The notes under the pieces were generated by a model. That model did no database searches. It was given only the letters and a program-made list of their open reading frames with translations, and was not told the origin of the DNA. The translations under genes and the position numbers were made by a program. Positions 6,185 to 64,000 of a stretch of 64,000 nt of DNA are shown one piece after another; the first letter of the stretch is position 1; the number at the start of each line of letters is the position of its first letter. Origin of the DNA: an uncultured Ruminococcus sp. (GTDB lineage: Bacteria; Bacillota; Clostridia; Oscillospirales; Acutalibacteraceae); NCBI GenBank assembly GCA_900543095.1, contig UQQD01000001.1, positions 41,836 to 105,835 of the forward strand. Reading direction: 5' to 3'.

Positions 6185-6290
6185 TGTTATAATCTAAGTA
6201 CAGTTGACGCTCTTTTGCAACGGTTGCAATTTGTCGCAAGCTTCAACCATGCAAGAAAACCGTAGCATTGCTCAGATTTGAATAATTTAA
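6185..6290 (+). repeat. Family-1 modular intergenic element, copy A (extended -10 + CTAAGTACAG ... TTGCAATTTGTCGCAAGC ... TTGCTCAGATTTGAAT)
   Basis: Contains the conserved 5' box TGTTATAATCTAAGTACAG, the core palindrome and the 3' box. Lies upstream of the ClpP-like gene. Confidence 0.7.
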
Positions 6291-6411: not shown

Positions 6412-7215
6412 ATGTCGCAAAAGCACAAAAACTCACACCATAACCGCAGTGATAAGGACGACTTCGTTAAAAATCCCTGCGATGACGACGTAAATTGTTC
6501 CGAGGAAAACGAAAGGTCAAATTATGACCGTATAGAAGATACCGGATCGGTGCTGACCTGCCGAAATGGCGGCGTTATTTACTGCCTTACCATAATCGGT
6601 CAGATTGAGGGACATTATATTCTTTCTCAGCAAAACAAAACCACAAAGTATGAGCACGTTATTCCGCTTCTTGTATCAATAGAAGAGGACGAGAGAATCG
6701 ACGGACTGCTTGTTCTGCTGAATACCGCAGGAGGAGATGTGGAAGCCGGACTTGCGATAGCCGAGCTTATTTCCGGAATGAAAAAGCCGACGGTTTCAAT
6801 AGTCCTCGGCGGAGGTCATTCTATCGGTATACCGCTTGCCGTAGCCGCAAAAAAGAGCTTTATTGCAAAAAGTGCTTCAATGACGGTTCATCCCGTCCGC
6901 ACAACAGGGCTTACTCTGGGCGTTTCGCAGACGTTTGATTATTTCAAAAAGATGCAGGACAGAATTACTACCTTTGTATGTGAAAACTCAAATATCACAA
7001 AAGGAAGGTATAATCAGCTCGTTTTGAATACAGGCGAGCTTGTTACCGACATCGGAACGATACTTGAGGGACAGGAAGCGGTTAAAGAGGGACTTATCGA
7101 CAGCGTCGGAACGGTGTCGGACGCAATAGATGAGCTTTATGCAATGATAGAGCAAAAAAAGGCAAACGAAAAAAAGAAAACCAAGCCCAAAAGAGAACAG
7201 GAAAAAGCAAATTAA
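6412..7215 (+). CDS. ClpP-family serine protease (TepA-like) with N-terminal extension
   Basis: LLNTAGGDVEAGLAIAELI and a GGGHSIG Ser region, within the ClpP/crotonase fold family. Confidence 0.7.
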   Translation: MSQKHKNSHHNRSDKDDFVKNPCDDDVNCSEENERSNYDRIEDTGSVLTCRNGGVIYCLTIIGQIEGHYILSQQNKTTKYEHVIPLLVSIEEDERIDGLLVLLNTAGGDVEAGLAIAELISGMKKPTVSIVLGGGHSIGIPLAVAAKKSFIAKSASMTVHPVRTTGLTLGVSQTFDYFKKMQDRITTFVCENSNITKGRYNQLVLNTGELVTDIGTILEGQEAVKEGLIDSVGTVSDAIDELYAMIEQKKANEKKKTKPKREQEKAN

Positions 7216-19475: not shown

Positions 19476-20654
19476 ATGCTTGTTGGATTTGTAAGGTTTT
19501 TCAGAGGTTGGGTGGAGTTTTCAACATACGGAAAATTCCCCGAAAGACTGCTTAATATTACTTCACGCTACGGCATTAAATTATGGGACGCCAAACCCGT
19601 AAGCGGAGGGCTTGACGTCTCAATGTCGGTCAGCGATTACCGAAAAATAAGACGTATTGCAAAAAAGGCAAGAGTCAGGACAAAAATAACAAAAAAGCAC
19701 GGCTTGCCTTTTATTGCGGCGAAGTATAAAAAAAGGATTGGCTTGCCCATAGGCGCACTTCTCGGAATAGTGATGCTTCTTGTGCTCTCAAACTTTATAT
19801 GGTCAATAAGCATTACGGGAACGGAAACCGTAAGCGATACACGGCTTCTTGAGGTGCTTGCCGAAAACGGTGTTGATATAGGCAGGTACAAGAATAATCT
19901 TGACGCAAAGAAGATAAAACGCGACGCCTTGCTTGAGGTTGACGAGGCAGGTTGGATGAGTGTAAATATAACCGGCAGTCTTGTATCTGTTGAGGTAAAG
20001 GAGAAGGCGCAGAAGCCTGAAATAAATCAATTTGTTGCTCCCTGTAACGTTAAGGCAAAATGCGACGGCGTTATAACGGATATAAATGCAAAAAACGGCG
20101 AAACGGTCGTGAAAAAAGGCAGCGGTGTTACCAAGGGCGACCTGCTTGTGAGCGGAACATTGCTTACCAAGCTTGAAACCACACGTTATGTCCACGCCGA
20201 GGCGGAGGTTTATGCCGACGTTATTTCTGATAAGGAATTATCATTGCCCGTAAGCTTTGATTATTATTCTCTTACAGAAAATAAAACCGACAGGAACCGT
20301 CTGAAATTTTTGTGGCTTGAAATTCCGTTTTCGATTTCATTTTCGTCTTATGAAGACTCGGCTTATTCCGAAACCGCAAGGAATATTTGTGCAAACGATG
20401 TTGCCCTGCCTATGCAGATAAAAACCGAAACCGCATATGAAGTACAACATTCGCAGGTAACGCTTGACGATGAGCTTGCTCAGCAGGTGTTTGACAATCA
20501 GATGCTGCTATATGAAGTGTTTGAAAAGGGCGGAAGCAGAGTTGTGAGTAGAAATATTTCGATGAGCACCGATGAAAACTTCTTTCACTGTATGATAGAT
20601 TATGTTTTTAATGAAAATATCGCACAGAGCGTTGAATTCAGCGTGACAGAATAG
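19476..20654 (+). CDS. yqfD: Sporulation protein YqfD
   Basis: Gene order after yqfC, a single TM segment, and a size of about 390 aa. Confidence 0.7.
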   Translation: MLVGFVRFFRGWVEFSTYGKFPERLLNITSRYGIKLWDAKPVSGGLDVSMSVSDYRKIRRIAKKARVRTKITKKHGLPFIAAKYKKRIGLPIGALLGIVMLLVLSNFIWSISITGTETVSDTRLLEVLAENGVDIGRYKNNLDAKKIKRDALLEVDEAGWMSVNITGSLVSVEVKEKAQKPEINQFVAPCNVKAKCDGVITDINAKNGETVVKKGSGVTKGDLLVSGTLLTKLETTRYVHAEAEVYADVISDKELSLPVSFDYYSLTENKTDRNRLKFLWLEIPFSISFSSYEDSAYSETARNICANDVALPMQIKTETAYEVQHSQVTLDDELAQQVFDNQMLLYEVFEKGGSRVVSRNISMSTDENFFHCMIDYVFNENIAQSVEFSVTE

Positions 20655-26840: not shown

Positions 26841-26892
26841 TATGGATTTTTGCAGGTTAAAATTTTGCTTATTAAAACCGTAATTAATAATA

Positions 26893-26930
26893 AATCCGGA
26901 CGAACAGTTTAGCTTGCTCGTCCGGATTTT
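26893..26930 (+). terminator. Rho-independent terminator
   Basis: ATCCGGACGA...TCGTCCGGAT followed by TTTT. Confidence 0.65.
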
Positions 26931-26987
26931 ATCAATTTGTTCTGTAATATAATTGTAATTATTCTTTTGTTGAATTTTAGCTTGAAT

Positions 26988-27168
26988 GTGTTATAATCTA
27001 AGTGCAGATGTCACCCGTCTTTTAGGCGGGTGACATCTCAGGATTTCAGTGGGAGTTATAATCTCCCACTAAAATCCTGAGGAGCTAAAGCTCCTTTGCA
27101 CTGCTTGCAATCTGTCGCAGGCTTTGCTCCTTGCAAGCAAAGCAAAGCCTTGCTCCGATTTAAATTAT
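26988..27168 (+). repeat. Family-1 modular element, copy B (full-length, 4 hairpins), acting as the nrdR leader
   Basis: TGTGTTATAATCTAAGTGCAG, then P1, P2, GGAGCTAAAGCTCC and GCTTGCAATCTGTCGCAGGC, ending in TTGCTCCGATTTAAAT 26 nt before nrdR. Confidence 0.75.
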
Positions 27169-27654: not shown

Positions 27655-27800
27655 TCTAAGTGCAGATGGTCCTCGACTCTTAGGAGTCGAGGATCAATTC
27701 AAGGTGTCAGAGGGAGTTATATCTACCTCTGACACCTTGAGGAGCTGACGCTCCTTTGCACTGTTTGCAATCTGTCGCAAGCTTTGCTCCGACTTAAATG
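27649..27800 (+). repeat. Family-1 modular element, copy C (begins at the nrdR stop codon)
   Basis: AAATAATCTAAGTGCAG, P1 and P2 with altered but complementary stems, then GGAGCTGACGCTCC, TTGCAATCTGTCGCAAGC and TTGCTCCGACTTAAAT. Confidence 0.75.
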
Positions 27801-27923
27801 TTTCGCACTTTCATTTAATGTATATTATACTTATGTAAAGTATGCGGGCGATGTTTTTTCGCTCTTAGGTTATATATTCTTTAATAATAGTCAGCAAATA
27901 AGTATAAAAAAACAAATCCTATG

Positions 27924-27987
27924 GATAATATCTAAGTGCAGGCTCTGCTTCCTGTAAGCAAAGCAGAGCGTTGCCCCGATTTAAATT
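27924..27987 (+). repeat. Family-1 element, copy D (minimal: 5' box + terminal hairpin + 3' box)
   Basis: GATAATATCTAAGTGCAG, then GGCTCTGCTT...AAGCAGAGC and TTGCCCCGATTTAAAT, 26 nt before the 74-aa ORF. Confidence 0.7.
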
Positions 27988-28012
27988 ATAATCAGAATGA
28001 AAGGGCTATCTA

Positions 28013-28237
28013 ATGAAAATATATTCAATCACATATGACAAGGTTTTAAATCTGAAACGAGCCGCCGCAGAAAAATTCACTGACAAAATTCATTTTCACG
28101 ATGCCTGCGGAGGTCAGTATTTTAACCTTGAAACGCCGAACGAGGAGCTTCAAAAGTTCATAGTGGATTATTTTGAAGGACAGGGAATAGCGGCTGTATT
28201 TTCTGAGGATAATATGAATTTTCATCTTGCTAAATAA
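28013..28237 (+). CDS. Hypothetical 74-aa protein
   Basis: ORF with an RBS-like AAAGGG, flanked by element copies D and E. No family was recognised. Confidence 0.4.
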   Translation: MKIYSITYDKVLNLKRAAAEKFTDKIHFHDACGGQYFNLETPNEELQKFIVDYFEGQGIAAVFSEDNMNFHLAK

Positions 28238-28326
28238 TAATCTATGGAGCTAAAGCTCCTTTGCACCGCTTGCAATCTGTCGCAAGCGGTGCTTTTTGCA
28301 GGCAAAACATTGCTCCGATTTAAATG
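28236..28326 (+). repeat. Family-1 element, copy E (5'-truncated: starts at the GGAGCTAAAGCTCC module)
   Basis: ATAATCTATGGAGCTAAAGCTCCTTTGCACCGCTTGCAATCTGTCGCAAGCGGTGC...TTGCTCCGATTTAAAT. Confidence 0.7.
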
Positions 28327-28426
28327 ATATATTTGATAAAGCACTTTAATAAATCCGATTATTGTGGTATAATGATTATGCAGGAATGACGTGAAAGTAT
28401 AAATATATAACAAACGGAGGTAAAAT

Positions 28427-31084
28427 GTGAAAAAAATTAAAAAAATATTTGCTGTATTTTCAGTAATTGCAGTCATAGGGTGCACTTCTGTTTTTAATGT
28501 CGGAGCGGCATCCGTTTCCGATGGAATAAAGGGTGACATTCAGGCAGTAGAAACAAATGATACCGAAGCAGAAGTAACAGCAGAAATTAAAAATTCAAAT
28601 TATTATGCTATCGATGACATTAACTACAAACTTACTGTTTCTGATAATGCAGAAATAGTCGGTGAAAGTCAAAAGAACGGTATTACTCTTTCGGAAAACG
28701 AAAGCGATTCAATGAATACAAAAGTTGCCCTCAAATCAAAGGCAGATCAAAAAGCTTCGGAAACTGTCCCCACAGAAAATCAGGGTATAACATCTGCCAC
28801 ATCTGCAACCGAAAAAGCCGTAACGGTTAAACAGCCGCAGAGCACAGACAACGGAACTGTTAAAACAGGAAATGCTTCTTCTTTCACAATCACTTTGTCT
28901 GTAGTTATTCTCTTTGTCGCACTCTTAATAATTATCTTGAAAATGCGTGGCAAAAAGGCTTTGATGTCGTTAGTTCTTACAGCAACTCTTACCGTATCCT
29001 GCACGGCTGTCGGTATCAGCACAATTTCAGCAAATGCGGCTGAGGAGTATTCCTGTTTTACGGATGTTTCAGAAATAAAAATCGGAAACGAAAGCGTTAC
29101 GATAACGCTCACAGTCGAATATCCGAAGCAGGCAGAAATTCACGATAACACTCTTGCCGACATTCAGAAACTTAACAATAATCAAGCCGAGGTTATTATT
29201 AATGAAGACGGTGAGATTACTTTTATAAGCGGTAAATTCACGGATTACAAGGTTACAAATGTCGATACTGCTTTTTCCTCACTTCAGGCGGTTGAAACCT
29301 TGTTGGGAGCGGATACATACGACTTTACTCTGCTTCCCGTAAAAACAAATGTAGATACAATCACAGGCGATACATATTATAACTTTGAACAATTTTACAA
29401 CAACTATGCAATAAGTTCTTCGTATGTTGTCGTCGGTGCAGATAAAGACGGCAATACAATTTCTGTTGCAAGCTCACTTGAAAAAAATCTTTCAGATGAA
29501 TTGATCGGAGTTGACACATCAAAGCTTATTTCTTCGGATGATGCAATAAACACGGCTTTAAAGGCTTTGCCTAATCTGGAACTTTCCGAAGTAAGAAATC
29601 CTGAACTTGTGATTGATTCGGATTTCAAAAGATACTGTTGGTATGTATATGTCAACAACCATGGATTGGAGGGCAGTGCTACCGAAAGCTTCAGTTACCT
29701 CAAAATTACCGTTGACGCAGTAAATGGTGAATTTTTATCATACGCCCCATTGTCCTCGATTGAAAGTGATAATACCGAAAGCTATGATGCAGACCTGTAT
29801 TTTAAGAATATAAAAACCGAAATGATGGACTATACTGCGGCAGACGGTTCAACAGTTCAACTCCCAACAACTAAAAAGGCAAACGGAAAATATCAGATTA
29901 TTGATACGGAACGAAAAATATATACAGCTGAGCCTCTTGATACGGAGATGAGCAATCTTCTTACCGCAGGAGCATACACTTTTGACAGCCCGGAAGATGT
30001 CCCCGAAAATGTTGTTTCGTTTGTTGACAACATTATTAAAACATATGATTATTTCAAATCAAAGGGCATAACTTCAACCGACGGAAACGGTGTTCCGATA
30101 AAAATATATATGGGATACTACAAAGCATCAGACGGTCAGGAAGTGGCAAATGCCGTAGCCATAGGCAATGCATTCGGCTTCAGCTCATTTATATGCAGCA
30201 ACACTCCTGTTTCAAGATCGCTTGATGTTGCGGCACACGAATACACACATTCATTCAGAGTTGCGGCAATAGGCTCAATGACTTATAGTAATATAACAGG
30301 AGCCTTAGAAGAATCTTATGCCGACATAATGGGTAATCTAACGGAGATGTCAATCAACCCCGAGGGCTGCGATACCGAAAACTGGCTTGTCGGTGAAAGC
30401 AGATTAGGCACAGCAATCAGATCAATGTCAAATCCGGAAGCTTACTGTCAGCCGTCATCGGTCGGCGGTCCGTACTTCTATTATTCGGGGGATGTACTGT
30501 CACAAAGCCTTGATAACGGAGGAGTACACATCAACAGCGGTGTCCTGAATAACATAGCTTTCAACACTTACCAAAAATCTGACTATTCATATGACGAATG
30601 GTTCGACATTTGGCTTAATTCATGCTATGCGGGAGTTGCAGATTTCAATCTGAATGATGTAAGAGGATATGTAAGGCACATTGCAAAGCGACACGCTCTT
30701 AATGAACTTTACGATTTATTTGAGCAAGAATTCATAAACGCAAATGCAGTAAACACAGATACTTTAAAATGGAACGGCTTCCAAAACTTTGAGGGTTACA
30801 AGAAAGCCCAAATAACAGTCAATAATTTACCCTCAGACTGTGATATTTACGGAGTTATAGCTGTGAATCTTGAAAAATCAGACAACACAGTTAAGCTTCT
30901 GCTGCAAAACAGCGGTAAGAATATGTTGTGCAAGGAATACGATATTGTCGGTCAATCAACGCTTACAATTGTTTGTCAGAGAACGGTTGACAATAAAACA
31001 GAGTTATCGTATTTCCGCAAAACCTTTGAGAAAAACGAAGATTTGTCAAATATAACCGTAGATTACAGCGAATTTATAAGCTAA
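28427..31084 (+). CDS. M4 (thermolysin-like) zinc metallopeptidase. It has an N-terminal surface module, an internal sorting-signal-like TM, and a second signal-peptide-like segment
   Basis: GTG start with GGAGG RBS. HEYTH zinc motif plus ExxxD (EESYADIMG). An internal VKTGN + TM + KMRGKK, followed by a signal-peptide-like segment ending in ANA, at aa 150-205. Confidence 0.7.
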   Translation: MKKIKKIFAVFSVIAVIGCTSVFNVGAASVSDGIKGDIQAVETNDTEAEVTAEIKNSNYYAIDDINYKLTVSDNAEIVGESQKNGITLSENESDSMNTKVALKSKADQKASETVPTENQGITSATSATEKAVTVKQPQSTDNGTVKTGNASSFTITLSVVILFVALLIIILKMRGKKALMSLVLTATLTVSCTAVGISTISANAAEEYSCFTDVSEIKIGNESVTITLTVEYPKQAEIHDNTLADIQKLNNNQAEVIINEDGEITFISGKFTDYKVTNVDTAFSSLQAVETLLGADTYDFTLLPVKTNVDTITGDTYYNFEQFYNNYAISSSYVVVGADKDGNTISVASSLEKNLSDELIGVDTSKLISSDDAINTALKALPNLELSEVRNPELVIDSDFKRYCWYVYVNNHGLEGSATESFSYLKITVDAVNGEFLSYAPLSSIESDNTESYDADLYFKNIKTEMMDYTAADGSTVQLPTTKKANGKYQIIDTERKIYTAEPLDTEMSNLLTAGAYTFDSPEDVPENVVSFVDNIIKTYDYFKSKGITSTDGNGVPIKIYMGYYKASDGQEVANAVAIGNAFGFSSFICSNTPVSRSLDVAAHEYTHSFRVAAIGSMTYSNITGALEESYADIMGNLTEMSINPEGCDTENWLVGESRLGTAIRSMSNPEAYCQPSSVGGPYFYYSGDVLSQSLDNGGVHINSGVLNNIAFNTYQKSDYSYDEWFDIWLNSCYAGVADFNLNDVRGYVRHIAKRHALNELYDLFEQEFINANAVNTDTLKWNGFQNFEGYKKAQITVNNLPSDCDIYGVIAVNLEKSDNTVKLLLQNSGKNMLCKEYDIVGQSTLTIVCQRTVDNKTELSYFRKTFEKNEDLSNITVDYSEFIS

Positions 31085-31087
31085 TAA

Positions 31088-31172
31088 AAAGCCGCACAGC
31101 AATCCACCCAAAACAGTTAGCATTTAGCTTAACTTTTGCGGAGTAGGTAACGCTGTGCGGTTTTTATTTTAT
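31088..31172 (+). terminator. Terminator (long hairpin + T-run)
   Basis: GCCGCACAGC...GCTGTGCGG followed by TTTTTATTTT. Confidence 0.5.
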
Positions 31173-31298
31173 CTTGCGACTTAACAATATAGGCGCATTG
31201 ACCGTTTGTTAGGCAAATCAAATCCTCGGGGTAGGTTTCGACCTGACAGCAGATTTTTACCGCACCTACAATAATTTTAGGAATTGATTTTTCAGTAT

Positions 31299-32130: not shown

Positions 32131-32290
32131 ATGATTTTAACCGGAGCAACTTTCTTATTTGTTTGCAGGTCAGAGCCTGCGACAGACTGCAAACAGTGCA
32201 GGTAGCATTATTCTCTCAGGTTTTCAGAGGAAGGTATCTGTATTTAGGCCATTATCGCCACTGATATATGCTCTTAGGTTATATTTATGC
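32131..32290 (-). repeat. Family-1 modular element, copy J (minus strand, upstream of the 31944 zinc-ribbon gene, antisense to the plus-strand leader)
   Basis: Reverse complement reads AAATATAACCTAAGAGCAT ... TGCACTGTTTGCAGTCTGTCGCAGGCTC ... TTGCTCCGGTTAAAATCAT. Confidence 0.6.
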
Positions 32291-32305
32291 TTAAGGAGAT
32301 CTTTT

Positions 32306-35300
32306 ATGAAAAAATCGTTAAAAAAATCAGTTTCTGTTTTTTTATCCTTGATAATGGTATTATCGGTCTGCAGTGCGGGCTTTTGCGTTTCAAATGCCGC
32401 CGTGGCAGAGGAAGAACCGCTCGGAGTTCCAGTAATAGACGCTGAAGAAACAAAGACCGTGATTTCATTTGATAACGGCAGTACGGCTAAAATCAATAAT
32501 GCACCTGATGTTTCCAAGCTTGAAAATCGGCAGATAGTCGAAAATATTGCCGGCTATGAGGTTTTTTATGACGGCAACAGCATAATGGACGTTACCTTAA
32601 ACGACGTCGTGTCATCCAAAACCGCAACCGAAACCAAAGCGCCTAACGGTTATTATTCCGTCAGATTTGATATGCCCGATACCAACAAAGAAGTTTTTCT
32701 TACGGGACTTACGCCTGATAATATGGAATTGATTCAGGAAAAATTGATAGACAGCTATACAAGCGACAAAGATTTTACGCTTGAATCCTTTGACTTTATT
32801 GACACTGAAAAAACAACGGCGTCAAATGATGACGACAATCTTTGTTGGGCGGGCGTTGCTTCCAATCTTTTGCATTATACAGGCTGGGGGGCAAAGGCAG
32901 GCTATAAAACCGAGGATGATTTGTTTGACCTTTTTGTTGACAGCTTTAACGACGGCCCCTATTTTATTTCAAACGGATTGAGTTGGTTTTTTAACGGTTA
33001 TGAGAATATAATATCAAGCTTTGATCCAAATGATGCAACTGTCAAGAAACCGAACTCCGGAGCATTTTTGCCTGACTATGCCTATGATAAAGTCGGAAGT
33101 GCGAACTTCTTTAATGACGATTACAGCAATTCGATAAAACTGATAAAACAAGCCCAAAAGGATCTTAAAGACGGCAGTGGTGTCGGTATAGGCGTGGGTT
33201 GGCTAAACGGTGACAGCTTTAACGGCGCCCATGTTATTTCCTGTTGGGGTTATGTAAATAATAATGATTACAGCGAAGACGTAAAGGAGCATTACGAGGC
33301 ATTTATTATTTCCGATTCCGACTCGGATGAAAGAGCGGATTCAAACCGCCGTACAGCTCCGAATAAAATTAATATAATTCATTCATCTCCATATTCTGCG
33401 GCAGGATTCAACACATGGCTTTTTAAAGGATACGGCAGCGGATTGCTTTATTCAGTTGATTCAATAAAGCCTTACAGCGATGACCTTGAAAAGGAAACCT
33501 CACCGAGGGCAACAAAAAATAAAAACAGTACTGTGGATTTCTTGGCAGACGGCATTAATGTATCTTCCGCAGATGGAACTTCATCGGATAGCCAAAAAAC
33601 CCTTTTCAGCGATGATGAAATATATTTAACAGCTGTTGTTGCCAAATCCAACATTATAGCGTTTAACGGAGAATGTGAGTTTTCTTTTAGGATATTAAAT
33701 GATCTTGGCAACGAAGTGTATACCGCAACACAGCGAAAGAGTTTGAATACAAACAACGGAGTTAAATTTTATGTCGGTCTAACTGACAAATCTATCCGAC
33801 TTTCCCCCGGAAGCTATACGGCGGAATTAACGGTAAATCCGCAGGAAGAGATAGAGGAAGCGTATTATTACAACAATATGTGTTCAACTGAATTTGTGGT
33901 TGATACAGATGAAAAACCAAACTATGAGTTATCTGTGTCCGCCGATATAGCCGATTTTAACGATCTTGACCAAAGTGAAGCTAAGATCAGCTATCAAGTT
34001 TTTGACGAGATACTTCCCGACATATCGACTGTTGAATTGTACTTGTCTTATTATCAGGATGAAAATTGGACATTGTGGAGAAACGAAAAGAGAGGTTCTC
34101 AGGGTCTTCCGCTGGGCTCTGCGCCCGAAGCTGTTGCATCGCCTGTTTCTTCTTTTGAGGAGGATAATGCCGAGGATTCCATGTTCATTTACAAGTGTTC
34201 CGTTTCAAAAATCGGTTCAAAAGTCAAGTTTTTGGTAAAAGTAACTCTCACAAACGGCAAAACAATAAATGTATATTCTCCGGAATATGAACTGTATTAT
34301 TCAAAAATACTGTATGTTGATGACGATAAAAATACGGGTACATATTCAAATCTTGAAAACGGTGCGACAAAATTGGCAGACGGCGAACAATTCTGCTTTT
34401 CAATTAAAAACGCTTCAACATACGACAGCGGTGTAATAAGCGGTTATTATGTGTTGGCGTTAAGCAACGAAACTCAAACTGTTGATATTACCGATCCTCA
34501 GTATTTCAGCTTGTCTTACGGAGAATCAATCAATTCAATTACAATAGACAGTTGGAATGACGGTTTACCGCTCTCAGGAAAATACAGCGTACTTGTAAAT
34601 GTTTATACTGATGACGGAGTTTTTAATTCGTGCAACAATTTAGGCACACTGTGTTTCAGGGAGCAGAACGGCATAGTTGTTGATACGGCTGACGATGTTT
34701 CCGATGATTATGACGGCAAGACATCGCTGCGAGAAGCAGTTGAGTATTATATTGACCGCAATTTGGTTGATGAATCCATTACGGTTTCCGAAAATTTGAA
34801 GAATGGTTGCTTGAATCTTAATTCTCCGATAAAAATTGACGCTAAGGTAAAAATTGACGGCTCGTCAAATTACGAGCAGGGTGGCAAAAGCTATATTTCA
34901 GGTACCTATATTCAGTCTTACTCCGGAAGTTTATTCAATATAACCGACAGAGGAGAGCTTAATCTGAACGGATTGACTTTGTCAGGGGTTATGGCAGACT
35001 ACGGCGGAACGGTAAATAATAACGGCGGTAAAGCAGAATTCAGCAATGTGAGATTTTTCAATAGCTCTGCAAAAATCGCAGGCGGAGCGGTTTATTCAAG
35101 CGGAGGTATATTGACATTTAAAAATTGTACGTTCAAGTTGAGTTCTTCAGAAAACGGCGGAGCGGTTTTCCTGACTGACGGCGCAAAGGCAGATATGCTT
35201 AATTGCACTTTGTTCAGCAATATGTCAAACAACGGAATAATAACCAATAACAGCGGAAATTTGAATATTGTCAATTCAACATTCACTGAAAATACTAATT

Positions 35301-35926
35301 CTGCATCGGTAGTATCAAACAAAAACACAAATATGCTGGGATGTATCGCAACGGGCAATTACAGTACATATGACCTTGAGGGTAAAATAAATGTATATGG
35401 AAGTTTTATCGGAAAAACAGATAAATATGTAACTGCCGTAAATTGTGAAACAGGCGGTATAGATGATATTTTTGTTACTCAAAACGATGAGGTGGAATAT
35501 GGACTGATTTATAACGGCATTGAGTGCGGACTCCTATTTTACAGACCGTATATTCATGATAAAAAGGGTATAAGCGTAAGCGTTAAAAACGAAATACTCG
35601 AATATTCGGACGGCGTTCAAACATTCAGTACAAATATTCCTGCCGCATTTGACGCTGAGGATTATCAGCTTGATTCAATAGGCGATCAAAGAGGATGTGT
35701 TTACGGCAGTTTTTCATATGTGCCTTATAGGTCCGAATTCATCGGAGATGCCAATATGGACGGAAAGGTTAATATTAATGATGTAACGTGTATTCAAAAG
35801 TACCTGTCGGAATATATCACTCGTGATAAAATAGACTTAAATGCTGCAGATGTAGATATGAACGGCGTTGTCACTATAAAAGATGCAACGTGTCTGCAAA
35901 AAAGACTTACGGCGATGACGGTATGA
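32306..35926 (+). CDS. Secreted multidomain protein: putative papain-like Cys peptidase domain, right-handed beta-helix repeats, C-terminal type-I dockerin
   Basis: Signal peptide MKKSLKK... A CWAG Cys motif and GAHVISCWGY His region. NxxGGAxxxSxG beta-helix repeats. The dockerin is DANMDGKVNINDVTCIQKYL...DVDMNGVVTIKDATCLQKRL. Confidence 0.6.
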   Translation: MKKSLKKSVSVFLSLIMVLSVCSAGFCVSNAAVAEEEPLGVPVIDAEETKTVISFDNGSTAKINNAPDVSKLENRQIVENIAGYEVFYDGNSIMDVTLNDVVSSKTATETKAPNGYYSVRFDMPDTNKEVFLTGLTPDNMELIQEKLIDSYTSDKDFTLESFDFIDTEKTTASNDDDNLCWAGVASNLLHYTGWGAKAGYKTEDDLFDLFVDSFNDGPYFISNGLSWFFNGYENIISSFDPNDATVKKPNSGAFLPDYAYDKVGSANFFNDDYSNSIKLIKQAQKDLKDGSGVGIGVGWLNGDSFNGAHVISCWGYVNNNDYSEDVKEHYEAFIISDSDSDERADSNRRTAPNKINIIHSSPYSAAGFNTWLFKGYGSGLLYSVDSIKPYSDDLEKETSPRATKNKNSTVDFLADGINVSSADGTSSDSQKTLFSDDEIYLTAVVAKSNIIAFNGECEFSFRILNDLGNEVYTATQRKSLNTNNGVKFYVGLTDKSIRLSPGSYTAELTVNPQEEIEEAYYYNNMCSTEFVVDTDEKPNYELSVSADIADFNDLDQSEAKISYQVFDEILPDISTVELYLSYYQDENWTLWRNEKRGSQGLPLGSAPEAVASPVSSFEEDNAEDSMFIYKCSVSKIGSKVKFLVKVTLTNGKTINVYSPEYELYYSKILYVDDDKNTGTYSNLENGATKLADGEQFCFSIKNASTYDSGVISGYYVLALSNETQTVDITDPQYFSLSYGESINSITIDSWNDGLPLSGKYSVLVNVYTDDGVFNSCNNLGTLCFREQNGIVVDTADDVSDDYDGKTSLREAVEYYIDRNLVDESITVSENLKNGCLNLNSPIKIDAKVKIDGSSNYEQGGKSYISGTYIQSYSGSLFNITDRGELNLNGLTLSGVMADYGGTVNNNGGKAEFSNVRFFNSSAKIAGGAVYSSGGILTFKNCTFKLSSSENGGAVFLTDGAKADMLNCTLFSNMSNNGIITNNSGNLNIVNSTFTENTNSASVVSNKNTNMLGCIATGNYSTYDLEGKINVYGSFIGKTDKYVTAVNCETGGIDDIFVTQNDEVEYGLIYNGIECGLLFYRPYIHDKKGISVSVKNEILEYSDGVQTFSTNIPAAFDAEDYQLDSIGDQRGCVYGSFSYVPYRSEFIGDANMDGKVNINDVTCIQKYLSEYITRDKIDLNAADVDMNGVVTIKDATCLQKRLTAMTV

Positions 35927-52383: not shown

Positions 52384-52503
52384 GTTATATTATAATCTAA
52401 GTACAGATGTCCTTCGCCGATTAGGCAGAGGGTTGTTATATCAGGGCTTGCAATCTGTCGCAAGCCTTGCTTCTTGTGAGTAAAGCGTTGCTCCGATTTA
52501 AAC
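52384..52503 (+). repeat. Family-1 modular element, copy F, acting as leader of the 52544 gene
   Basis: TGTTATATTATAATCTAAGTACAG, a P1-like hairpin, GGCTTGCAATCTGTCGCAAGCC, and TTGCTCCGATTTAAAC. Confidence 0.7.
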
Positions 52504-52543: not shown

Positions 52544-53602
52544 ATGTCAAAAAAAGCAGTTAGTTTTGTTTTGGCAATTATGCTTACGGTTACAATGATA
52601 ACCGTAACGGCTCTTTGCGTATATGCCGAATCAGATGACGATGCCTATGACAACACAGCTTTTTCAGATTATCAGCTTTCGGATAATGCTTTTGAGGGAG
52701 AGCCGCAAGCCGAGCCGTCGGAAACATCGGCAACGGAGGCGAGTACGGATTCTGTAAACGGCAAATATCCGAATTTAACGGTGAATGCAATTTCAAACTA
52801 TTTTCCAAGAGCAGCTGCCGAATACAATTCAACCACAAAAGAAGTAACGGTTACCTATTGGTTAAACCTTTCAAAAAACATTCTTAACACTCAGTGGTAT
52901 ATAACATACGATTCAAGCGTGCTTTCGGTCTCCAACAGAAAAAACACGCCTGCATCTGTATGTCCGACTGTCGGTGCAAACGGAAGTCTTGATTTGAGCG
53001 AGGAAAACATCATAAATTATACCGCAACAAATATGAGATTGTTTGATTTTACTTCTCAAATGGTTCCCTTTGCAAAGATAGTATTTGATGTAGATGATTT
53101 GCAAAACGACAGTGCCGTTACAACAACCATAGATCTTACCGTTGATGTATTGAGGGTGTCGAAAGCAGATTCGAATACGTTGCTGTCGGCTGACAGCGAG
53201 GAAGTCAGCCTTGTAAATAATTGTGAAATAGCAAAAAATCAGCAAACATCCTTAATTGATGTTGATTACAAAACCACATTGACAATATCTAACTATGTTG
53301 CACCGACTACGGCAGAAAATACCAAGAAAAGCACTGATGATGAAAGCAATACTCAACAAGACTCAACCGATGTTTCTGTTGAACCGTCCGAGCAGTCATC
53401 CCAGCCATCTGAAACTGACGCAACCTCAAAAATCGACAGCTCAAATTCCGTTCCTTCCGAAACAGCTCCGCCAAATGTCGGAGCGGGGCAGACTAACGCT
53501 GTTGTTAATACGGGCGATACTTATCTCGCTCTGATATTCCTTTGCGTTCAGATATTTGCAACGGGAGTTTTGTTTGTAATGCGTAAAAAGGAAATGTATT
53601 AA
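52544..53602 (+). CDS. Secreted cohesin-like surface protein with C-terminal VNTGD sorting-signal-like anchor
   Basis: Signal peptide. The QWYITYDSSVLSV pattern resembles the cohesin G..F.L.YD..L pattern. Ser/Thr-rich linker. NTGD + TM + RKKEMY. Confidence 0.45.
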   Translation: MSKKAVSFVLAIMLTVTMITVTALCVYAESDDDAYDNTAFSDYQLSDNAFEGEPQAEPSETSATEASTDSVNGKYPNLTVNAISNYFPRAAAEYNSTTKEVTVTYWLNLSKNILNTQWYITYDSSVLSVSNRKNTPASVCPTVGANGSLDLSEENIINYTATNMRLFDFTSQMVPFAKIVFDVDDLQNDSAVTTTIDLTVDVLRVSKADSNTLLSADSEEVSLVNNCEIAKNQQTSLIDVDYKTTLTISNYVAPTTAENTKKSTDDESNTQQDSTDVSVEPSEQSSQPSETDATSKIDSSNSVPSETAPPNVGAGQTNAVVNTGDTYLALIFLCVQIFATGVLFVMRKKEMY

Positions 53603-63128: not shown

Positions 63129-63134
63129 TGTTTG

Positions 63135-63233
63135 TTTAAATCTGAGCAACGCTTGCGGTACTTGCGCTGTTTGTAATCTGGTCGCAAGCTCTGCACTTTG
63201 CAGGTAAAGCAAAGCCTTGCTCCGATTTAAATT
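63135..63233 (+). repeat. Family-1 element, copy G (diverged 5' box)
   Basis: AATCTGAGCAACG ... TTTGTAATCTGGTCGCAAGC ... AAAGCAAAGCC TTGCTCCGATTTAAAT. Confidence 0.6.
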
Positions 63234-63356: not shown

Positions 63357-64000
63357 TTATTTGTTTCCTGCAATGTGCTTTTGAATTGCCGTTGCATCCG
63401 AAACGCTTATTTTGCCGTCACGATTAAAGTCGGCATTGCGTTTTGCCTTGTCGCTGAGTTCTGTTTTTTGAGCAATGTACTTTTGAATTTCCGTTGCGTC
63501 TCTGACGTTGATTTTTCCGTTGAGATCAACGTCGCCGAGTAAAGCGTCTGTTTTGGTTGTAACGGCTTTAATAACAAATGTTCCGCCGATGTCATCGCCG
63601 TTGTTCGTTTTATACCAGTCCATAAGGTCGGTCATAGTGTTGTCGTAATAAATATAGCTTTCATCGTATTTTGAATCGTTGATGAATACATAAGTGCCCT
63701 TTTGACTGTTGACAAGCCATTCGCCTACGCCTATGGAATTGTTTTTGCCGATGTTTGATGAATTAATATCCACCGCTATTGAGCCTGAGCCTTCAGGCAG
63801 TTCAAAATCGTCAATATCGGCGCAGATATATCCGTTGTAATCAACCGTTCCGCTGAAGAGCTTTTCCCACTCTGCCTTGTCCGAAGAGGGTTTGTCGGAA
63901 ACAGTCGGTACATAATAAATATCATAGTCGGCGCCCAGACATTCGGTTTTGAATATAACCTTGTCAAGGGTGCTGTAGTCATCGGAAAAATCAAATTTGT
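63357..64000 (-). CDS. Dockerin-containing secreted protein, N-terminus beyond window
   Basis: C-terminal dockerin GDVDLNGKINVRDATEIQKYI...DFNRDGKISVSDATAIQKHI. The frame stays open upstream past 63773 to the window end. Confidence 0.6.
   Translation of the reverse strand, partial: KFDFSDDYSTLDKVIFKTECLGADYDIYYVPTVSDKPSSDKAEWEKLFSGTVDYNGYICADIDDFELPEGSGSIAVDINSSNIGKNNSIGVGEWLVNSQKGTYVFINDSKYDESYIYYDNTMTDLMDWYKTNNGDDIGGTFVIKAVTTKTDALLGDVDLNGKINVRDATEIQKYIAQKTELSDKAKRNADFNRDGKISVSDATAIQKHIAGNK

Follow-up and report, generated by a model that had tools for sequence, protein, structure and literature searches.

What keeps the hairpins in front of nrdR paired, and in which molecule do they fold? 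The question is raised by a 64,000-nucleotide (nt) stretch of DNA from an uncultured Ruminococcus sp. (contig UQQD01000001.1, positions 41,836 to 105,835; hereafter the window, whose own numbering is used throughout). Directly after the -10 box of the nrdR promoter, the window carries copy B of a modular interspersed repeat of ~170 nt. Copy C, 658 nt downstream of copy B, has the same order of hairpins with different stem letters and with pairing kept. An earlier note on this DNA read such paired changes as evidence for RNA-level function. The first half of that argument stands, in that pairing in the repeat family has been under selection or is actively maintained, however, the folded molecule need not be RNA. 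RNA-level function cannot be concluded from conserved pairing here, as the unit is mobile and repeated in many copies. In mobile elements pairing may also persist through folding of single-stranded DNA during mobilisation, or through correction of palindromes by template switching.

Covarying helices of the repeat unit

Units of the family have the form YCTAAG...CCGATTTAAA. From 5′ to 3′ they consist of the end YCTAAGYRCAG, the hairpins P1, P2 and P3, the 3′ strand of a helix designated Pa (CTGYRC), the hairpin P4 (TTGC-AATCTGTC-GCAA), the hairpin P5 and a tail, TTGCTCCGATTTAAA. Copy B (26997-27164, + strand) is full-length, TCTAAG...CCGATTTAAA, and separates the nrdR -10 box from the leader. 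Its region 27007-27098 comprises three hairpins in series, all read on the + strand: P1 (27007-27037), delimited from sequence and fold with arms GATGTCACCCG at 27007-27017 and CGGGTGACATC at 27027-27037; P2 (27037-27081), which pairs CTCAGGATTTCAGTGGGAG with CTCCCACTAAAATCCTGAG under an apical loop TTATAAT with one C·A mismatch; and P3 (27081-27094), GGAGC-TAAA-GCTCC. Helix Pa, formed by GTGCAG (27002-27007) and TTGCAC (27096-27101), spans 27002-27101 on the same strand and closes a four-way junction around these hairpins. Beyond the junction, still on the + strand, are the P4 core hairpin (27105-27120; TTGC-AATCTGTC-GCAG), which is the most conserved segment and served as the search pattern, the P5 terminal hairpin (27120-27149; GGCTTTGCT...AGCAAAGCC), and the 3′ tail (27150-27164; TTGCTCCGATTTAAA), downstream of which there is no conservation.

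The individual pairings on which the earlier note was built hold up on re-reading, with small amendments. The P1 arms pair in copy B (GATGTCACCCG/CGGGTGACATC) and in copy C (GGTCCTCGACT/AGTCGAGGATC), the latter with one G·T wobble that had gone unmentioned. Likewise, the P2 arms pair in copy B (AGGATTTCAGTGGGA/TCCCACTAAAATCCT) apart from the C·A mismatch, which had also been passed over, and pair perfectly in copy C (AGGTGTCAGAG/CTCTGACACCT). The terminal hairpins of copies B and D differ as described, by a T>C change offset by an A>G change. The stretches TTAGG and GGGAGTTATAATCT, said to be shared loop sequences, are present as stated but belong partly to the stem rather than purely to the loop. 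The stems are also positionally homologous and not independent palindromes, as a covariance model aligns copies B and C from end to end (185 and 140 bits, respectively). This model (R1) covers 174 positions with 53 base pairs. Between copies B and C, 32 of its pairs are identical, 6 (compensated P1 pairs among them) are doubly changed and still paired, 1 is changed on one side and still paired, and 3 are broken in one copy.

Covariation persists with more copies, which answers the doubt the earlier note had raised against itself. We counted it in 64 distinct copies from many genomes, aligned by MAFFT. Standard pairs occupy 92.6% of cells, compared with 40-45% when the partners are slid by 1-3 columns. 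Double changes occur in 32 of the 53 pairs, against 13.4 ± 2.1 in column shuffles, none of which reached the observed number in 500 trials, and against 8-16 in the slid controls. The compensated changes are therefore statistically supported, and they are found throughout the unit: in 11 of the 16 pairs of P2, in 7 of the 10 pairs of P5, where TTG/CAA and AAG/CTT are swapped for each other, and in all 6 pairs of Pa, whose arms lie ~90-120 nt apart. Variants of Pa among the copies include GCGCAG/CTGCGC, GTGCAG/CTGCAC, GCACAG/CTGTGC, GTACAG/TTGTAC, GCAAAG/CTTTGC, GCGATG/CATCGC, GCCGCAG/CTGCGGC and GTCGCAG/CTGCGAC. Copy B folds at -85.5 kcal/mol (z = -10.5 relative to shuffled sequence), and its reverse complement folds better still, at -92.1 kcal/mol (z = -11.6). 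Covariation shows that a single strand must fold, and does not show which molecule it is.

Two further pairings were considered and rejected. In the first, a pseudoknot, the 5′ CCTAAG would pair with the P1 loop CTTAGG, to which it is complementary in the consensus, but the variants (CCTACG and CGTTGC, compared with loops CTATAAAGG and CTCATAGG) do not covary. A closing helix of the extreme ends (AAYC/GATT) is unsupported; in AACC, the common form, it consists mostly of A·C mismatches. At the base of P2, columns 76-77 of alignment A3 face columns 118-119 as two adjacent pairs that are Watson-Crick with rich covariation (GC, AU, CG, UA). In ~40% of copies, from several genomes, both are A·C (TCAGAA...CCCTGA), equivalent to two G·U pairs on the minus strand.

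Insertion after TATAA and strain variation at nrdR

How did copy B come to lie in the nrdR leader? The nrdR promoter (26970-26997, + strand; TTGAAT-16-TGTTATAAT) runs straight into the unit, whose first base coincides with the final base of the -10 hexamer or follows it immediately. Scanning metagenomes with NrdR gave 80 loci from relatives, at 66-93% NrdR identity. The covariance model found no copy, neither B nor C nor any other, in any of these orthologous loci, and still none at E ≤ 1 when the 25 closest were searched again. The relatives keep synteny with the upstream penicillin-binding-protein gene and have the same promoter without the element. Their empty site reads tgTTATAAT^TATTTTAgg (L134, L141, L128), where the occupied site reads tgTTATAAT[171 nt]TATTTTAta. 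The junction is ambiguous by no more than 3 nt (AAT), and the target site is not duplicated. Copy B has inserted precisely, right after the nrdR -10 box.

The same left flank recurs across the family. Among 68 distinct copies, the five bases before the unit are T in 44, A in 56, T in 59, A in 56 and A in 59, so that most read TATAA followed by Y. The 12 bases that follow GATTTAAA are unconserved in these copies. Insertion occurs 3′ of TATAA, in a single orientation and without target-site duplication, and TATAAT or TATAAC is restored by the first base of the unit (T or C). Copy C uses the ATAA context of the nrdR stop codon and starts right behind it, and about eight others begin within the TAA stop codon of the gene upstream. 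We rejected promoters as the specific target, since there is no enrichment of a -35 box or of TG upstream compared with other TATAAY sites. It is the pentanucleotide as such that is targeted, and nrdR is one instance of it.

Near-identical strains differ in the number of units at this promoter. Nine assemblies with identical NrdR carry one, two or three head-to-tail units before nrdR, with the junction GATTTAAA directly followed by TCTAAG, and one locus, L120, has two tandem units downstream of nrdR. The units within the arrays are not all alike, as units 2 and 3 carry a different P1 (TCACCTGCC/GGCAGGTGA; L117 2627-2969, L118 2456-2969, and L122-L124). In three assemblies, scaffold gaps (runs of N) fall inside the nrdR array, where the repeat breaks the assembly. 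Strains also differ downstream of nrdR. We compared the region of the window that holds copy D and a 74-aa open reading frame (ORF; 28013-28237, region 27799-28240) with strains L116, L119, L121, L122 and L124. Several of these have a single chimeric copy, its 5′ half from copy C and its 3′ half from copy E, and have lost copy D and the ORF. This is consistent with the expected product of a recombination deletion between C and E. Copies are thus shown to serve as recombination substrates.

Other features of this neighborhood also vary. A cassette of ~3 kb (~28330-31290) with an M4-peptidase gene (28427-31084), its own promoter and a terminator is absent in L117, L118 and L123. Its left breakpoint lies 5-6 nt past the 3′ end of copy E, immediately after GATTTAAATGATA, and its right breakpoint has no visible repeat. 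A 15-bp hairpin with TTTT behind it (26892-26929) stands between the penicillin-binding-protein gene and the nrdR promoter and is a likely terminator. The shorter intergenic region of relatives such as L134 is without it.

Copies in the window and spread of the family

Pattern searches together with the covariance model found exactly eight sense copies in the 64-kb window, or ~1 per 8 kb, and these differ in their modules. The hairpins P1 to P3 are optional, being present in copies B and C, absent from copy D and from L109 and L024, and found elsewhere in short forms. Copy A (6193-6282, + strand) is short and degenerate and precedes the gene at 6412. Copy C (27655-27798, + strand) begins directly 3′ of the nrdR stop codon (gaaATAA followed by TCTAAG) and has lost P5 by deletion between two TTGCTCC repeats. 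Copy D (27931-27985, + strand) is minimal, with the 5′ end, P5 and the tail. Copy E (28241-28324, + strand) is without P1 and P2 and has an extended P4 followed by TTTTT; in it the core hairpin is lengthened to GCACCGCTTGC-AATCTGTC-GCAAGCGGTGC (28263-28297) just past a small ORF, which makes the site resemble an intrinsic terminator, and judging from this arrangement the copy may have been co-opted as the terminator of that ORF. Copy F (52396-52502, + strand) ends ~40 nt before the ATG at 52544. Copy G (63134-63231, + strand) is rearranged: P4, P5 and the tail come after a piece of the tail in inverted orientation (63134-63149). Its start, TTTAAATCTGAGCAA, is an inverted 3′ tail that forms a true 15-nt inverted repeat with the copy's own tail, a feature unique to G, and copy G looks like the rearrangement product of two copies. 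Copy H (32135-32278) lies on the minus strand, with a 5′ flank of TATAA followed by CCTAAG, upstream of the minus-strand gene 31944-31342. The window's own genes are housekeeping genes. Dockerin-domain proteins are encoded in and around the window (32300-35926 and 63357-63773; also in L117, L118 and L125), and the sporulation gene yqfD is at 19476-20654; together these suggest a genome of the Ruminococcus bromii group (Ruminococcoides).

Beyond the window, we scanned one genome per species with the exact 18-nt core pattern, which gave at least 115 loci. The first 100 of these hold ~83 sense copies, and at least 20 loci come from a single metagenome-assembled genome (MAG). Among the matches listed, the main carriers are uncultured gut and rumen Clostridia (RGIG9115, UMGS821, HGM11514, Candidatus Ornithomonoglobus, Ructibacterium and Acutalibacteraceae), joined by Ruminococcoides intestinale and Ruminococcus sp. 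YE282, and many genomes give many loci each. Matches to the core in proteobacteria were dismissed as chance, since the rest of the element is missing. Subfamilies differ in their modules: a 131-nt copy in L001 is without P2, and the MAG HGM11514 has a subfamily with an extra hairpin of ~20 nt, GTGACCAAGGGGTCAGACCC, at the base of P1 (L043 1238-1431, L045 5706-5889, L056 1881-2077 and L062 3867-4064).

The repeat family is apparently unannotated. The window has no Rfam match at the gathering threshold. Rfam searched at E ≤ 10 yields only noise, the best being RAGATH-15 on the opposite strand with 26 bits against a threshold of 199.5. Against Pfam at E ≤ 10, the six translated frames give a single match, to AEP-TOTE, whose 11 bits (E = 0.28) fall far below its cut-off of 27. 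One frame on the minus strand of the consensus is open from end to end (58 codons) and is rarely called by gene callers. The translated element matches only four tiny hypothetical proteins among 5.8 billion. An origin from phages or plasmids was rejected, with no blastn match in either collection and only two exact core matches in 2.9 million viral contigs. No recurrent neighboring protein family was found around the copies, and among papers on R. bromii repeats or small RNAs we found none that describes the family.

The folded molecule and the kind of element

Taking the dispersal, the target and the fold together, we consider it probable that the family belongs to the small, structured, non-autonomous mobile repeats, a kind that includes MITEs (miniature inverted-repeat transposable elements), PATEs and BOX-like elements. 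With MITEs it shares being short, non-coding, multi-copy and dispersed between genes, with presence and absence at an orthologous site (one site resolved to the base), and it is without the terminal inverted repeats and the target-site duplication of classical MITEs. Between the two ends, YCTAAGYRCAG and TTGCTCCGATTTAAA, complementarity is imperfect and limited to ~4-7 nt (AATC/GATT). With PATEs, which are non-autonomous elements derived from IS200/IS605, it shares insertion specific to the left flank, no duplication and a fixed orientation. Its conserved terminal modules and variable internal modules are those of a BOX-like element in architecture only, as there is no sequence homology. Measured against the majority gene strand, a proxy for replication direction, the copies of the 8-kb loci and the 64-kb window are oriented 59 to 40.

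When single-stranded, the unit folds into the four-way junction, with Pa around P1-P3, followed by P4, P5 and the short tail. We hypothesize that compensatory changes build up because only those lineages of the element that keep the fold go on propagating. The fold would most likely be needed in a single-stranded intermediate recognised by a trans-acting enzyme. An HUH-type single-stranded DNA transposase, similar to those of IS200/IS605, would best fit the asymmetry of the target, and we name it as a candidate only, no such enzyme having been found. Once inserted, copies would decay neutrally. As the insertion sites lie in transcribed intergenic DNA, many copies would be co-transcribed as self-contained structures in 5′ or 3′ untranslated regions (UTRs), where mRNA stability or termination may be affected incidentally. 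The right end, TTAAA, is similar to the target TATAA, so a unit could insert after a unit, which would explain the tandem junction.

Several observations weigh against a mobile DNA element of this kind. P1 (CCCCCGCC...GGCGGCGGG) and P5 (GCTCTGCT...AGCAGAGC) are unrelated in sequence, where the two ends of a PATE carry subterminal hairpins that resemble each other. Copies F and G are fixed throughout the strains retrieved, and the site of copy B is the only clean empty site recovered. No autonomous copy, with left and right ends more than 200 nt apart, was found in 1.2 Mb of loci. No homologue of IS200 TnpA or of TnpB was found among the ORFs of 1.6 Mb of loci, which is a weak negative. Several lineages have G·U pairs that are fixed on the + strand, in Pa in the species of the window, in P4 in copy B and L001, and in P3 in RGIG9115. 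Finally, a covarying long-range helix that forms a four-way junction is met more typically in RNA than in the DNA substrates known for transposons.

The last two points are also part of the case for the explanation favored by the earlier note, a functional structured RNA (for instance a small RNA, or a leader or UTR module acting in cis) whose function maintains the pairing. RNA function of the repeat is possible, and its position invites the idea. Copy B, placed downstream of the nrdR -10 box and ahead of the ribosome-binding site, must be transcribed; from this placement it almost certainly forms the first 170 nt of the nrdR 5′ leader, and an RNA-level consequence at nrdR is plausible. In many copies the end lies 9-35 nt ahead of a start codon or the beginning lies at a stop codon, many abut ribosome-binding sites, and in tandem-gene contexts 29 copies are co-oriented with their neighbors, compared with 11-13 opposed. 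However, TATAA as a -10 box or in a stop codon context is automatically in the sense orientation, and such insertions would be the least harmful, which could account for the bias. About 30% of the copies in tandem-gene contexts are antisense, and these have bit scores similar to those of sense copies (by inspection, no formal test). Copies in either orientation occur between convergent genes as well as at the 5′ and the 3′ ends of genes, with no consistent gene set downstream and no regulon or gene family associated. A selected + strand RNA should favor G·U over A·C, but across all copies G·U occupies 94 cells and A·C 116, and the consensus states per genome are Watson-Crick in 273, A·C in 9 and G·U in 3. 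The consensus counts run opposite to a selected + strand RNA and are too weak to assign the minus strand; the minus strand does fold better. The orthologous sites of sister species are empty while one to three copies stand at a single promoter in near-identical strains, and the family has no -35 enrichment upstream, no terminator of its own and no Rfam match. We therefore regard a functional RNA as an unlikely source of the pairing. The self-closing fold might nevertheless act as a plausible RNA-level filter in selection, keeping an inserted unit from disturbing mRNA signals.

An RNA could also act as a guide. The unit could be an orphan guide-RNA module, a deletion derivative of an IS200/IS605 element whose + strand transcript is an omega-RNA-like scaffold for a TnpB or IscB encoded elsewhere, reading into the 3′ flank as the guide, with TATAA as the target-adjacent motif. 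The motif on the 5′ flank only, the lack of duplication, a structured part of ~170 nt that ends at the 3′ boundary before a variable 3′ flank, and the mild orientation bias toward the gene-rich strand all fit this scheme. The loci, however, gave no TnpB or TnpA, within the weakness of that search, and no IS605-orfB or HEARO-type Rfam match even at E ≤ 10. The strand-specific G·U signal is missing, and Pa ties the extreme 5′ end to the 3′ domain, which argues that the short unit evolves as a whole and is not the right end of a longer element. We consider such a module very unlikely. We give equally little credence to the proposal that the "compensatory" changes arise at the DNA level, by template switching that corrects quasi-palindromes during replication, without functional selection. 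P1 of copy B is a perfected palindrome of 11-14 bp where the family consensus has an internal loop, and pairs are kept as Watson-Crick on both strands, both of which speak for it. Covariation of Pa across three hairpins is not readily explained in this way, conserved internal loops, bulges and asymmetric loops persist, and neither dispersal nor the TATAA target is accounted for. 

A bolder reading is that the family represents a new class of mobile module, targeted to TATAA and free of duplication, in which the whole 170-nt fold is needed to propagate, either as an omega-RNA-like scaffold acting in trans or as the substrate of a new single-strand enzyme that strikes melted -10 regions. We think this quite unlikely. 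If true, it would place self-folding leaders on genes such as nrdR and make leader arrays in tandem that vary between strains.

The repeat family is a major source of structural variation between strains, through the nrdR leader arrays, deletions between copies and the insertion or loss of the peptidase cassette beside a copy. It causes assembly gaps, and it is a recurrent false positive to expect in screens for structured RNA. The methodological lesson is that covariation in mobile repeats reports a folding constraint and is silent on RNA versus DNA. The precise insertion at TATAA makes a system for asking how small repeats spread with minimal harm, and the same insertions allow one to ask how a self-contained UTR fold affects expression.

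Among known repeats, Correia/NEMIS of Neisseria, ERIC of enterobacteria and bcr1 of the Bacillus cereus group are likewise small repeats that end up as folded UTR parts of mRNAs and can alter processing, stability or promoter activity, and compensatory changes have been reported in some. These carry terminal inverted repeats and TA or TTTAT duplications, whereas the family described here has neither. A 162-nt MITE of Eubacteriales (Pfam DUF6783), described in the SPLASH preprint (10.1101/2024.01.18.576133), makes no duplications and often inserts exactly on a stop codon, between TT and AG. Our family resembles that MITE (10.1101/2024.01.18.576133) in its kind of host (Ruminococcus, Blautia), size, mostly intergenic location, short specific site and insertion at stop codons. 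It differs in targeting the position after TATAA rather than between TT and AG, in having no overall inverted repeat and in having no conserved ORF on each strand. We rejected identity with the DUF6783 MITE, as none of the six translated frames matched DUF6783 at E ≤ 10.

IS200/IS605 elements, PATEs and REP/REPIN-RAYT systems insert beside a short specific sequence on one flank only, duplicate no target, lack long terminal inverted repeats and have subterminal hairpins; in IS608-type elements the hairpins of the left and right ends are alike. As in PATEs and REPIN-RAYT, the repeat family has a one-sided left flank, a fixed orientation, no duplication and hairpins kept by compensatory change. 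It differs from them in its dissimilar left and right hairpins, its fold with a multi-helix junction and the lack of any Y1 transposase, RAYT or TnpB found around it, which is a weak negative. BOX elements of Streptococcus pneumoniae are modular, intergenic and folded, number more than 100 copies per genome, are co-transcribed, have inverted-repeat ends (boxA and boxC) and carry no transposase of their own. The repeat family has no sequence similarity to BOX, and it is set apart by another fold, a TATAA target on its 5′ side, the lack of duplication and tandem arrays of whole units that vary between strains. In being modular, with conserved ends and optional internal modules, in its strong folding, in a copy number above 100 per genome, in probable co-transcription with neighboring genes and in having no transposase of its own, it is like BOX.

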